Translations under genes and position numbers: made by a program
Assembly: GCA_964106645.2 (NCBI GenBank)
Contig: OZ067046.1
DNA: 64,000 bases
Origin: Podarcis pityusensis
Taxonomy: Eukaryota
Reading direction: 5' to 3' (one strand)
Part shown: positions 257-37,868 of the stretch, one piece after another
Numbering within the stretch: the first letter of the stretch is position 1
Layout of the letters: every line of letters starts with the position of its first letter
Notes under the pieces: model-generated
Told to the model about the DNA's origin: nothing
The model's database searches: none
The model's input: only the letters and a program-made list of their open reading frames with translations

Positions 257-821
257 TGTGCTGGTCCCGGGGGGTTACCGTGAGGCATGGTCAGTCCTGG
301 GCCGAGGGTCTGGAGACTGTCCACCAAGGGGGAAGTGGGGTCCAAAGCAAGAAGCCGGGCATGGTCGGGAACTCCAGAAAAACAGGTCTGGGTGCTGGCA
401 GAAACAGATTTCCAACGTCGTTGCTCCTGCAACCTGGGACTGGACTGACTGGCCTTTATCTCCTCTGAGGCCAGGGGTGGTCCCAGCCCACAGGTGACCC
501 GCCTCTCCTGGCCTTAAGGTGAACACTCCTCCTGAGAGAAACCAGTTCCCTCTGCCTCTCTGCCCTGAGCCTCTGCAGCACTGGAGAGGCTGGAGGGTTA
601 CTGGATCCAGGGGGAGGCTCACCTTCCCCTGCCAGGGCTGGGAGAGGCGCACCTGCAGGCAATGGGTCCTCAATCACCTCTGGAGCCAGAGTGGATTCAT
701 CTGGTGTCTACTCCCGAGGACCCGGCACAGGTGCTGGCTCAGCCGGCCCTGGAGGTGGGGACTCCTGTGCAGCTGGGACTCCTCAGACTCAGCTTCTGAA
801 TCAGATTCCCAGGCCATCACA
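257..821 (-). mobile_element. Solo LTR-like element, family A copy 1 (565 bp), with a degenerate internal ORF
   Basis: Ends TGTGCTGG...CCATCACA (imperfect 8-bp inverted termini). Exact 5-bp TSD CAATC at 252-256 and 822-826. Aligns end to end with 3660-4267. Confidence 0.85.
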
Positions 822-3659
822 CAATCAGTAGAAGCTGGTGTGTATAAGTGGGAGGAGGGGAAAGTGACAAAGTTGAATTCAAGTAGTAAAAATGGACCCA
901 TAAATGTAGACAGTGTGGAAAATGACAATGGGGAAACTGTAACAAAGGATGGATCTCCGCAAATATTCTGGCATGTACTTAGGCTTCATTGCAGTTGTGA
1001 ATGGGATCTGAGAGAAGTTAATGGTTTTGGCGCAGAGTTCTTGGATGTCTCCCGATGACTTGTTTATTGAGCATTTCTCCTGATTGATTTGCATGGTGGT
1101 TACATTACTTCCCGACACTTTCCTTGCCGCAAAAAGTCCAGGTTTTTCTAATTTGGTCCATTGCCACAGGAATGCTTTAATTGCATGAACCTAAACTGTC
1201 AGTATGCAACCAAATCCCTCCTGCAAAATAGCGACAGTCTGGATGGGGCCCTAAATATTGGCAAGAGAAAGTGCTCTAGTCAAAAGCAGTGCGTGACTAG
1301 AGCATAAAAAATATTTTAGTTGAGGATATGGAAAGAAGCCATAGATTTTCATAATGGATAGGGAGACAGAATAGATCACGCCTGGGGGACAAATGTGACC
1401 CTTTAGAATTCTGGCCAGTGGAACACACACTCTCCCTATACTCTCACTGGTCCTCTAGGCACTCCAAATGTTTTTGCCAAGCTGAAATAAGACTTGATTC
1501 AAGTTTAGCAGGAGCTGCTGGCTTACCCATGTGATGAGGTATCAGAAATGCAGCTTGGAACATCTTCCTTGCAATGGTATATCCCCACGCTCTGCCTACC
1601 CAATGCAACGTGGCCGTTGGGCTCTCCTGGCCAAGAAATTGTATAGAAGACTTCTGGTTCAGGCTGGGATTTTGTCTGAGGAACACGGTCTTCCTCAATT
1701 AGAGGGGTTTCTGTATGTCCCTCCACTGCTGACTCCATAGCCCAGTATTGAAACATAGATTAAAGAATAGGAACAAATTAGAAGAAATAAAGGGGGAGAC
1801 CTGAAAGCTTTCCTGCCTAATCAACAGTCCAAACTGGTATGTTGATGAGTATAAAGTGTAGTCAAGGACAGAAGAGCTGATGAGGAAATATGTGCTGCTC
1901 ATTCTTAAGCAAAGTGTTGGGGAGGAGTTCAGCCTCCCCAGAAAGCAACATGTCATTGATGCAATAATAGTGTATCAGTGGTGAATTTATACTGGACTGT
2001 CCATATGTCATTCAGCTTTCTTAGTTCTGCCACACATGCCCAGGTTACAGCATTATTGCCATCTGGTGTGGTAATCTTGTGCTATGAAGCACAACCAAGG
2101 CGGGACCAAAAATTGTGTCTGTGGTATATAAAGTTACAGGATTTCAGCAGGACATTGTGGGGCACGCACTGTTTGGAAATGAAGCAGTATGTCCACCCCA
2201 ATAACATAATGAAAGCTGAATTAAAAGGATGCTTGGAGGGTCCCCTAGTAACTGCTCACACCTCCTTTTAGGTGCACATCTCAGAAAGCCATGGGTAAGA
2301 GCAATTCGGCACATCTGTGCATTCAAGAAAAGAAACAATCTGTTCAGCCACTTCAAAGAGAGCAAGTATCCCTACCCCCCACCCGAAAACCACAAAAGCA
2401 AAGGTGTAAGAACCTAGCCAATAGTTTGTATACAGTGACGCCTATAATTACAATTGTATTTATAGGTCTATAGGTCTCACAACCTTAGACACAGCACGAT
2501 TGGTTGGAGAACTTAACAGCACACGCTTAACTTCCACTCCAGCGGTGTTGCACAGAAGTTACCCTGCTCTCATTTGGAGCTCTCTGTATTTTATTTCTAT
2601 AGGTTTCTAATTCTTCTGTGCTAGAGACCTAATGCATTTTATTCATTCTTCCCGCGGCTCAGTGCGGCCACTTTTTGTTCTCCTTTTACATTCTGTGTAT
2701 ACTTAACAGCTACCAACTGCTCTGTTGGAATGAGGATGAGAGTTTGTAAGGAGTCTCTCCTCTATTACCGCAAACAGCTCTCTGGTCTTCTGCCAGCGTC
2801 TTTAAGGCTACCCCACTGTGCTCAAACCACTTGTGTTTCAGATCCTTTAGGTCTCTCCTTGGCTATCCAATTCCATGCACTTGCTTCCTAGCAAGGCCTC
2901 CTAACAACATGATAGCACAAAGCTGAGCCCTGGGACTTTAAACAGTTAAAAACAGGTCCTCTTATCTTAGCATGAAAACATTTAAGGAGTGAGGATATTG
3001 GCAGTAGCTTCTGGTCTGGTAATTTCATTTACAGAGATCATGGAACGAGTATCAGTTTTACAGCATGGCTTATAACTGAGGATTTTCCAATGAGCGGATA
3101 TTATTCCAGAGAGAATGAAACACCATCAACATAAAACAGTGATGCCTCATAGTTTCTTTTGTCGAAAATCTCCATATGAACTAGTGAGCAGGGTTTATGT
3201 TTGCAAAGCATATTTGGGATGCATTCCAGAAGCCACTTACTTAAGAGGAGTCCAAATGACATCAGTGGGACTCCTTCAGATTAAGCGGCTTGTGGCTTTC
3301 ATTGCTCTCCATGCCTGCATATGCTATACACACTTTGTCAAAGTTGTGTTGGTGGTTTCTGTCTTACAAAAATCACTCATATTTTAGTTCAATAGCTATT
3401 TAAGACATGCTATACAAACAAAGAGGAATGCTTTGAAGAAGAAGATACCTTGAATTAATTTCTTCTAATAGGCAAATCCCAAAAATTCAAAATGTCTAGA
3501 AGAAGAGGGGTTATTACATGCGCCCTAACTTGAAGATTATAACCCCAAAGTGCAGTATGAAATTATTTCCAACAAAGCACCATAAGTTAGAGATGCACCT
3601 AACTCATGATTATTAAGAGGGGAAGATGTGAAGGCAATAAATGACTCTTGGAGCCACAT

Positions 3660-4267
3660 TATGCTGGTCCCGGGGGGGGGGGTGTTTACCATGAGGTGTG
3701 GTCAAAGTCCGGTCCTGGGCCGAGGATCTGGAGGCTGTCCACCAAGGGGGAAGCGGGGTCCAAAGCAAGAAGCCGGGCGTGGTTGGGAACTCCGGAAAAA
3801 CAGGTCTGGGTGCTGGCAGAAACAGGTTTCCAACGTCGTTGCTCCTGCAACCTGGGACTGGGCTGACTGGCCTTTATCTCCTCTGGGGCCTAGGGCGGTC
3901 CCGGCCCACAGGTGACTCGCCTCTCCTGGCCTTAAGGCGAGCACTCCTCCTAGGAGAACCTAGTTCCCGCCGCCTCTCTGCCCTGAGCCTCTGCAGCTCA
4001 GGAGAGGTTGGAGGGTTACTGGACCCAGAGGCAGCCTCACCTTCTCCTGACAGAGCTGGGAGAGGAGCACCTGCAGGCAATGGGTCCTCAATCACCTCCG
4101 GAGCCAGAGTGGATTCATTTGGTGTCTGCTCCTGAGGATCCGGCACAGGTGCAGGCCCATCAGATTCAAGGCCCTGCCCCGGCTCAGCCAGCCCTGGGGG
4201 CGGGGACTCCTGTGCAGGCTGGGATTCCTCCGGTTCAGCCTCTGAATCAGATTCCCAGGCCATCACA
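3660..4267 (-). mobile_element. Solo LTR-like element, family A copy 2 (608 bp)
   Basis: Ends TATGCTGG (TG mutated to TA)...CCATCACA. Exact 5-bp TSD CACAT at 3655-3659 and 4268-4272. Retains more CpGs than copy 1. Confidence 0.85.
3874..4263 (-). CDS. Putative LTR-encoded 129-aa disordered protein (acidic N-terminus, Pro-rich middle, Arg-rich C-terminus with RRSARL)
   Basis: ATG at nt 5 of the element (TGTG-ATG-GCC-TGG). Open frame MAWESDSEAEPEE...SPELQRLRAERRRELGSPRRSARLKARRGESP...QRR*. The same frame in copy 1 differs by one 1-nt frameshift and one in-frame 27-nt indel. Expression unknown. Confidence 0.45.
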   Translation of the reverse strand: MAWESDSEAEPEESQPAQESPPPGLAEPGQGLESDGPAPVPDPQEQTPNESTLAPEVIEDPLPAGAPLPALSGEGEAASGSSNPPTSPELQRLRAERRRELGSPRRSARLKARRGESPVGRDRPRPQRR

Positions 4268-4807
4268 CACATGTAGAAAGCCCTACCACCCAGCCTGATA
4301 GCAGCTCATATCCTTTGGCAATCCAAACCCAACATGCAGTAGCTTGCAAACAACCTGTGTGCTACTCACAGCTTCATTGGATGGAAGATATGCTATGCAA
4401 CATCCTTGTTGCCTGGGTCATTCTAACCTTATCTTCCTGACTGGTTGAGCACTCCTGCATATGAACAATGGTGGCAACTCTAGCTTCTCTGTCCTGCTGG
4501 ACAGCTCCTCTGTCACAGCGATGTTTAAAAAAGTACAGTTATCACCAGAATTCTCACTTGTGTGCCCATAGTTCTGTAGAGATAAGGGAAGACTGGTGTA
4601 ACCCTATTTGCATTTTTGAGCTGTGTTCCAATGTTGGGGCTTATATACTCCTGGCGTCATGCTATGATTAGCTATCGAGTTAGTCAGAATCCTATTTTCC
4701 AATGAAGGCGGCAGGGAAATAACAACAGGAGGCTCCTCATGGCTCCAGAGGAAGAGTTCAACTTATCCCTTCTGCCACTCAAGTATATACTCCTCATCTT
4801 TATCTTC

Positions 4808-36289: not shown

Positions 36290-37500
36290 CCTCTTTGCGC
36301 CCCCTTGAAACTCCTGCTCCTTCGCCGACCTGACCTGTCCCTCTTGCCTTCCTCGCACACTGCAGTTTAGAAGCGATCCCGATCCCCCGAGCCTGGGAAA
36401 GCAACGTGACGCCGCGGCGCCGGGGGGCTTTGCATATATTATGCAAATGCCCCTCGAACCCCCCAGCCTCCTCTCTCTCTCTGGGAGCGCGCTGGGCGTC
36501 CGCCCCTCGGTCTAGGTGAATAAATTATGCTAATAGGCTCCCGCGGTTCTGGCAGGCGCTTGGAGGCGGCGTGCGCTGTGCTGAGTCCAGAGAAGAGAGC
36601 GCGAGGCTCAGGAGTCGCTGCCGCCGCCGCCGCCGCTACTGTTCCTGACAGCCGCTACCGAAGGCGCCTACGCAGCCAGGGGGCTGCAAACACGCTCCGG
36701 GGAAAGGAAGAGAACCGCTGCTCGCCGCTTCCTGGGGTCCCCTCGCACTTGGCTTGCTGCCGAAGTGACCCGGGCGCTGCGTAAAAGCGCACCGAGGAAG
36801 CCTGAGGAAAGCGGTGCAACAAGTCTCCGCTCCGCGCCGCTGGGTGGGGAAAACGGCTCCGGGGAGCACCTGGGAAGGTTGTCGGGCTTCGCTGGAGGGA
36901 GAATATTCCGCGGAGGCGGCGTGTTGACCGTGTGGATGGCAGTTTTGAGGGGCGCCCTGAGGAAGCTCGCCATGGTCTTTCTGCCTTGAAAGCCCCGCTC
37001 GCGCTTTGGCAAGCAGGCAGGGGGGTCTAGACTTGGAGTTTATTTTTGTCGCGAGTGGGGGGCGCGTGTTCGCGTTTCTGGGGGCGGGCAGCTTCGGGCC
37101 AAGTGTCCCTCCTCCCCAGAGGAGGAAAGGGGATTTCGCCCTCCGCCTGTGCCAGCAGCCCAGCATGGTGGGGAAAAGCCCGGACGCCAAAGGTCAGGGT
37201 GCCAACGGGGAGGCCAGCTGCTGGGGAGGACAGCGCTGCTGCTCCGGCAGGACGGCGCCCCCCAGCTCGCTGCTGGCTGCCCTGCTGCTCTCGGCGGCGT
37301 CCATCGCTTCCTGCGTGTATCTGGGGATGAAGACCAGTGACCTTCAGGCCAGGGTCTTGGCCATCGAGACGGCCCAAGGGGACGGATCTGCTGCTGCTGC
37401 TGCTGCTGCTTCCTACCAGCTGCTGCCCAGCTACTCTTTGGATCAGCTCAATGCACTGATGAAGGAGAACGTGGAGCGGCTTCTGGCTCAGGTGGGGTGG
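36290..37500 (+). promoter_or_regulatory. CpG island: COL25A1 promoter and 5' region
   Basis: Abrupt GC/CpG enrichment, GC-box-like CCGCCC (~36500), TGACG half-CRE (~36407), octamer ATGCAAAT 36441-36448, (GCC)5 at 36620-36634. Overlaps the first coding exon. TSS not determinable. Confidence 0.85.
37165..37491 (+). CDS. COL25A1: Collagen XXV alpha 1, first coding exon (cytoplasmic tail, type II TM helix, NC1 coiled coil)
   Basis: MVGKSPDAKG...LLAALLLSAASIASCVYLGMKTSDLQARVLAIE...LDQLNALMKENVERLLAQ resembles recalled human COL25A1 (...SCLYLGVKTNDLQARIAALE...QEKVERLLAQ). 109 codons, phase-0 donor CAG|GTGGGG. Confidence 0.95.
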
Positions 37501-37868
37501 CCTTGGGAGGCTGAGGGTGGGACTCCCAGGAAGAGACAGTTAGCCAGCCATCTCAGGAATGCCTCTCTGTTTACTGATGGAGGCCAGTTGCATGCGTAGC
37601 CCAAAATCGAAGCCAAAGGCAATAGAAGAAAAGTAGGGGGTTCGTGCAGGCATGCTTTCAGCAGAAAGAGAGAGAAACTGGGTAAATATTAGGAAAAGAG
37701 TGTGTGAAAATAGCCAAACATTTTTGTGTGGCTGAATGACTTTTAGGACTAAATTTTGCTGGGGGTAATTTGGGGGTAATTTGCGGACAGGGCTCCCCGT
37801 GGCTTAGCCCTTCAGTTGGCTTTGAATTCTACAGAGACACACTCTTCATTATTGTTATTCACAGAGAA

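Follow-up and report, generated by a model that had tools for sequence, protein, structure and literature searches.

An open reading frame in a lizard solo LTR as the C-terminal tail of a chromovirus Pol, with a candidate HMGN-like nucleosome anchor

The window, a stretch of 64,000 nt from Podarcis pityusensis, carries on its minus strand a 608-bp solo long terminal repeat (LTR; 3660..4267) that was assigned by sequence comparison to a Ty3/gypsy chromovirus family. This element is flanked by a perfect 5-bp target-site duplication (TSD), CACAT, whose left and right copies (3655..3659 and 4268..4272) have no strand of their own. The initial annotation had described a TSD-bounded TG...CA element; the duplication is indeed there, but the window copy ends in TA, with CA being the terminus of its sibling copies. 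Solo LTRs originate from LTR–LTR recombination, and no gag or pol match was found within the 64,000-nt window.

The U3 region of this LTR is filled, as had been claimed, by an open reading frame (ORF) of 129 codons (3874..4263, read on the minus strand from 4263 to 3874), the composition of which also agrees with its earlier description. Residues 1–86 (4006..4263, minus strand) contain 18 Asp/Glu, 18 Pro, and no Lys or Arg, a composition from which they are likely to form a disordered linker. Residues 87–129 (3877..4005, minus strand) hold 16 Lys/Arg and comprise an SP, an Arg-rich stretch, and the sequence RRSARL, located exactly where it had been reported (3934..3951, minus strand). RRSARL is a candidate acidic-patch anchor of the type defined in HMGN, Dsup, and Dot5 (PMC12487698, PMC13347269). 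It had been called the HMGN nucleosome-binding core; the full core is RRSARLSA, and the ORF, which reads RRSARLKA, matches it in seven of eight positions. The TAA stop codon does lie inside a TATA-like sequence, GATAAAGG (3871..3878, minus strand), for which a promoter role is suggested by its spacing to a predicted transcript start and self-primer (3838..3848, minus strand); the latter is complementary to the non-tRNA primer-binding site (PBS) of full-length elements, with one mismatch in the window copy. An in-frame ATG within the TSD/flank could lengthen the ORF by three residues. The length of the ORF is by itself uninformative, because 14% of 2,000 resampled LTRs (62% GC) contained an ATG-initiated ORF of at least 129 aa. 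RRSARL, in contrast, is rarely produced by chance, arising in 22 of 200,000 shuffles of the ORF protein, and neither HMG14/17 nor any other Pfam family was detected in the ORF at E ≤ 0.1.

The family has another solo LTR in the window (257..821, minus strand; 85% identical, TSD CAATC), independent of the first and 3.4 kb from it in the same orientation, with its tail frame broken. Pairing of the two LTRs as the ends of one element was rejected on account of their separate TSDs and the lack of gag/pol between them.

Genome-wide counts of 3,105 exact LTR starts, 255 polypurine-tract/LTR junctions, and 278 LTR/PBS junctions mark this as a high-copy family. Among the 30 best-matching copies, window copy included, the tail frame is open in 28 (124–130 aa), a proportion biased toward open frames by the choice of best hits; a 5-bp TSD is exact in 23 of these copies, has one mismatch in four, and is missing in three. 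Four loci with a common upstream flank provided the route to full-length elements. A search for a tRNA-type PBS returned mostly chance matches, but its loci exposed the 3′ LTR junctions; a strict purine-tract pattern search gave no match. The full-length elements are ~5.75 kb long, with paired LTRs 99.1–99.9% identical, and contain frames of 307 codons for gag and 1,270 codons for Pol. In one of them, L052, a gypsy-type gag is followed by domains in the order PR-RT-RH-IN-SH3-chromodomain; the chromodomain (PF00385, E = 6.8e-15) occupies residues 1084–1131 and has the aromatic residues of EYEVE and WKGY. The LTR family is a Ty3/gypsy chromovirus. Its gag–pol junction varies between close subfamilies, one young subfamily having a single 1,623-codon frame and another being split into 307 + 1,270 codons.

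The Pol frame of the full-length copies continues past the chromodomain, crosses the polypurine tract, and enters the 3′ LTR, where it ends at the stop codon of the LTR ORF; this stop is shared with the 1,270-codon Pol frame in L052, L053, and L056, and the LTR ORF constitutes the last 116–129 Pol residues. The window ORF is, very probably, the C-terminal tail of Pol rather than a stand-alone microprotein. The fusion to pol that the initial annotation suggested looking for in full-length elements was therefore found, whereas the accessory microprotein of Sag/Nef type that it favored gives way to a Pol tail in frame behind the chromodomain. MMTV sag and HIV nef are U3-encoded accessory genes with mRNAs of their own; the likeness lies in a protein-coding frame within the 3′ LTR, and the difference in their being separate genes, while the lizard frame is continuous with pol.

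The chromodomain and the LTR ATG are in phase at 30 of 34 junctions in the set retrieved by pattern search, at only 3 of 11 older junctions, and at 6 of 12 junctions whose LTR is at least 84% like that of the window, two of these six looking like one insertion duplicated. The survey of older copies started from 42 loci, eight of which had no junction, and yielded 34 entries, four of them duplicates. Junction length in older copies is 48–57 nt, with an in-phase mode of 54 nt, and these copies differ in the length of a poly-G run directly upstream of the polypurine tract (L086, L088–L098, L197–L226), which puts the tail out of phase in many of them. In L219, the LTR of which is 91.9% identical to that of the window, one frame extends from the chromodomain to the 129-aa tail; on the simplest reading, the window subfamily descended from an in-phase parent. 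Old full-length remnants are concentrated on a single 38-Mb contig (G000:C19), which holds eight of the 11 older junction loci, as would be expected of a non-recombining chromosome such as the W.

The fused lizard Pol–tail protein is already known as a database prediction, a UniRef Pol from Podarcis muralis being 99% identical across the chromodomain plus tail. The ATG at LTR nt 5 is probably incidental to the TGTnATG sequence in which the LTR ends; it is absent from five of the six other local chromovirus families shown, and the ATG end of the window family fits, except for one letter, the TGTYANR reported for Sushi LTR ends (PMC3601003). Three Podarcis gene models (P0004, P0023, and P0059) start at the LTR ATG and fuse the tail to gag-like or apparently host sequence; these models are likely annotation artefacts. 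A common annotation trap is thereby explained, in that thousands of lizard solo LTRs resemble small genes and gene models join LTRs to host exons (e.g., P0059).

The PBS of the family is not tRNA-like and pairs over 10 bases with sequence ~29 nt downstream of the TATA-like box. This 10-bp pairing of PBS and self-primer is present in both the MFE and centroid folds, the whole fold being unremarkable (z-score 0.85), and the PBS complement also occurs in five of the six other families. Self-priming is described for the Tf1/sushi group (PMC4600332, PMC6317226). Transcription is predicted to start at the self-primer, a spacing that fits the TATA-like box, and thus downstream of the ORF; a solo LTR's own promoter should consequently not transcribe the ORF. 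The earlier idea that solo LTRs spread the ORF across the genome accordingly stands for the DNA, but not for expression from their own predicted promoter. Full-length RNA would start at the same point in the 5′ LTR, self-prime in the manner of Tf1, and carry U3 solely at its 3′ end, so that the tail would be translated only within Pol. Solo LTRs would carry the frame passively while decaying.

Production of a free 129-aa chromatin protein from solo LTRs, via host read-through transcripts or spliced RNA, would require a different route and is very improbable. Its ATG does have G at −3 and +4, and there are roughly 2,500 LTR starts beyond the 255 plus 278 full-length junctions. However, the predicted promoter lies downstream of the ORF, the ATG is missing from the five families mentioned, and old solo copies lose the motif, mostly at CpG (RRSAHL, RRSACL), and frameshift privately. 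RNA bears on both sides of the question. Four runs with the same species label, 6–12% of each sampled, gave 445, 416, 136, and 183 matching reads, many of them on flanking repeat. Reads crossing the LTR 5′ boundary into other flanks, as host read-through would produce, numbered 11, 10, and 7 in three of the four runs; U3 reads, on the other hand, matched either strand, and in the four runs, at their low depth (0–4 across the internal region), no splice joint led into the tail. In the two bulk libraries, the thin coverage of the internal region was almost wholly of one orientation, which would be sense under the usual stranded protocol. No pile of reads at a start site appeared in the four runs, the depth of which is too low for start-site mapping.

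Extension of Pol into the 3′ LTR is not confined to the window family. For six other families in the same genome (L179–L181 and L184–L186; 10 regions were examined, of which two had no LTR pair and two were mis-paired), Pol continues for 70–224 open codons into the 3′ LTR. Their Pol proteins are 49–54% identical, their tails begin acidic and end basic, and 1–11 stops occur in each of the other sense frames of the LTR. The chance of such an open frame is 0.003–0.045 per family, across seven families from at least two lineages. Because the six families form one clade, they are not six independent cases; a joint probability across all seven was therefore overstated and was abandoned, with the per-family values kept. 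The tails of the six families often carry an LL[CN]W-like sequence coinciding with the TATA-like site, and in several of them the final part of the frame includes the self-primer.

These per-family values weigh against the reading of the tail as functionless read-through, in which a GC/purine-rich U3 would keep the frame open, promoter elements would hold the 3′ part, and the tail would simply be tolerated. Frame keeping points the same way: the net length change of the ORF is divisible by three in 82 of 88 copies, the six exceptions are private, and the sole inherited indel is of 30 nt, so that the non-triplet inherited indels that could have undermined the coding interpretation were not found. 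After the stop codon, in contrast, 32 of 37 shared indel events are non-triplet and only five triplet, a count inflated by tandem repeats. The recurrence of the motif across taxa, described below, likewise speaks against read-through, which is improbable overall. Part of the support for read-through comes from substitution patterns. Pairwise dN/dS is 0.08–0.18 for Pol, 0.36–0.83 for the tail (1.44 in one pair), and 1.2–2.4 for the other sense frames, and tail values of ~0.4–0.6 were considered as proof of selection until a private-variant control was applied. Fixed changes among seven subfamilies (N/S 66/37) were not poorer in amino acid changes than private, post-insertion ones (85.5/40.5; p = 0.57, 74 copies), and the pairwise ratio is therefore largely mutation bias. 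Selection on the amino acids, a further check arising from the initial annotation, is thus indistinguishable from neutrality, and in the acidic, Pro-rich part (residues 1–86) amino acid change is near neutral. The basic core has a fixed N/S of 4/8 versus a private 19/12, which is a trend only (p = 0.17, 74 copies). Also in keeping with read-through, dS is lower in the promoter-proximal part of the tail (0.00–0.10) than in its 5′ part (up to 0.30), the LLCW/LLNW residues of other families coincide with the TATA-like site, and one old family stops 0–61 codons past the chromodomain.

Conservation of the motif within the family can be read in two ways. The codons of RRSARL have the same sequence in 58 of 74 copies and show hardly any silent change, and since the codons are as fixed as the residues, constraint on DNA and constraint on protein are inseparable here; promoter DNA could explain the fixed codons equally well. 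All three arginines are retained in 118 of 135 open copies. RRSxRL, the conservation of which had been proposed as a check, is kept in most subfamilies but is replaced by RRSARF in one young subfamily.

Of 268 database hits outside the family, 150 had a single chromodomain followed by a tail of 15 aa or more. RRS[AS]R[LI] occurs in three of these 150 tails (Anolis P0182, P0160, and P0208), at most seven residues from the C-terminus in every case, against a shuffle mean of 0.02 and a maximum of 1 in 2,000 shuffles, although the searches behind the 150 tails used motif-carrying queries. The three proteins, whose tails are known as predicted proteins, are recovered with the chromodomain alone (E ≤ 1.2e-14), and two of the tails read RRSARIAA, which is nearly the RRSARIAT of yeast Dot5. 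A motif-free homolog search returned 16 hits only and, being underpowered, no further case of RRS[AS]R[LI]. Outside the motif the three tails can barely be aligned, and a tree of the SH3–chromodomain region places them on separate branches; its backbone is not resolved, and shared origin and convergence of the motif are not separable in it. The presence of RRSAR[LI] at the end of three of 150 other tails, where 0.02 are expected, makes an HMGN/Dot5-like anchor on the integrase plausible.

An alternative accepts the tail as a real Pol extension, but takes its basic end to be a nuclear localization signal (NLS) or a general DNA/RNA-binding patch and the HMGN match to be incidental. We regard this as unlikely, without being surprised were it to prove true. 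In each of the seven local families the tail closes with S/T-P and a basic cluster, and RRSARL is absent from all six others, leaving it in just one. A C-terminal bipartite NLS following an acidic region is known from the Ty1 integrase, and the Rhineura tail ends in KRGRP; RGRP, which is AT-hook-like, is found in 16 of the 150 tails against 1.6 expected. Such a role would not, however, need the Ser-Ala-Arg-Leu/Ile spacing, nor would it account for the recurrence of exact RRSAR[LI] at the tips of barely alignable tails on separate branches. Fish-type tails (P0114, P0199, P0210, and others) carry RGRP, and several end in R.PSP[ED][FY]. The tail of Salvator merianae P0184 contains RQSSRL immediately behind the apparent start of the LTR and RRQTRL close to its own end, the latter following a basic stretch that can be aligned with that of Podarcis.

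The preferred explanation as a whole, to which we assign a probability of about 50%, combines an LTR-encoded Pol tail, left behind in the solo LTR, with RRSARL anchoring the integrase alongside the chromodomain. For the anchor itself, the motif may about equally well prove to hold the Pol/integrase tail on the H2A/H2B acidic patch or not to do so, judging from its sequence. After proteolysis, the tail would either remain attached to the integrase or be cleaved from it to give a small tether. It would form an acidic, flexible linker with an arginine anchor at its tip, such that the integration complex would read the nucleosome at two points, with the chromodomain on the H3 tail and RRSARL on the acidic patch. 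A structure prediction for the tail peptide together with H2A and H2B, in a run without folded controls, scored 0.02 (mark 0.34) and speaks neither for nor against binding; AlphaFold 3 also fails on the HMGN2–nucleosome complex (PMC12487698).

Several known systems provide parallels. HMGN2 and Dsup bind the acidic patch through RRSAR and RRSSR (PMC12487698), and RRSARIAT of yeast Dot5 has been shown to bind it as well (PMC13347269). The lizard ORF has the same RRSAR core, including the serine and all three arginines by which contact is made (PMC12487698, PMC13347269); it differs from HMGN in reading RRSARLKA, in placing the motif at the end of a retrotransposon Pol, and in that its binding is putative. 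Viral acidic-patch tethers (KSHV LANA, CMV IE1, and foamy virus Gag) similarly use an arginine anchor, and loss of tethering by foamy virus Gag redistributes integration sites (PMC9040877). These tethers sit on Gag or on DNA-virus proteins, whereas the lizard candidate is U3-encoded and sits on the integrase. The Tf1/sushi group, including the vertebrate V-clade elements sushi-ichi and Amn, has the same PR-RT-RH-IN-SH3-chromodomain order, no env, and a non-tRNA, self-priming PBS; an acidic-then-basic tail of 116–129 aa inside the 3′ LTR sets the lizard family apart, none being described in the available parts of the two sources (PMC6317226, PMC4600332). A Pol that continues into the 3′ LTR and encodes a targeting motif there is already known from plant CRM group A (PMC3059260). 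In those elements, the CR motif takes the place of a lost chromodomain, whereas the lizard family keeps its chromodomain and adds a different motif.

A broader and more tentative view, held at somewhat less than even odds, is that the integrases of chromoviruses bear, behind the chromodomain, an exchangeable second chromatin-reading module encoded in U3, giving a bivalent grip on the nucleosome. The modules would be RRSAR[LI] in Podarcis, Anolis, and two other lineages, AT-hooks in fish elements, and basic helices of other kinds in the lizard sister families. Reports of the HMGN motif so far concern HMGN, Dsup, and Dot5; on this view it would also serve retrotransposons as a targeting device. 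Among the matches listed in a literature search that covered few subscription journals and no supplements, none described a motif of HMGN type in the integrase of a retrotransposon. A motif of six residues, whose mode of binding has been solved for HMGN and Dsup, bears on how chromoviruses select target nucleosomes beyond the contribution of the chromodomain. If the motif binds, retrotransposon integrases would join the short list of HMGN-like carriers, in parallel with tethering by foamy virus Gag.

Elsewhere in the window, a GC-rich, exon-like frame with a hydrophobic segment is present on the plus strand (36961..37599). We take it to resemble the first exon of a membrane collagen of the COL13/23/25 type.
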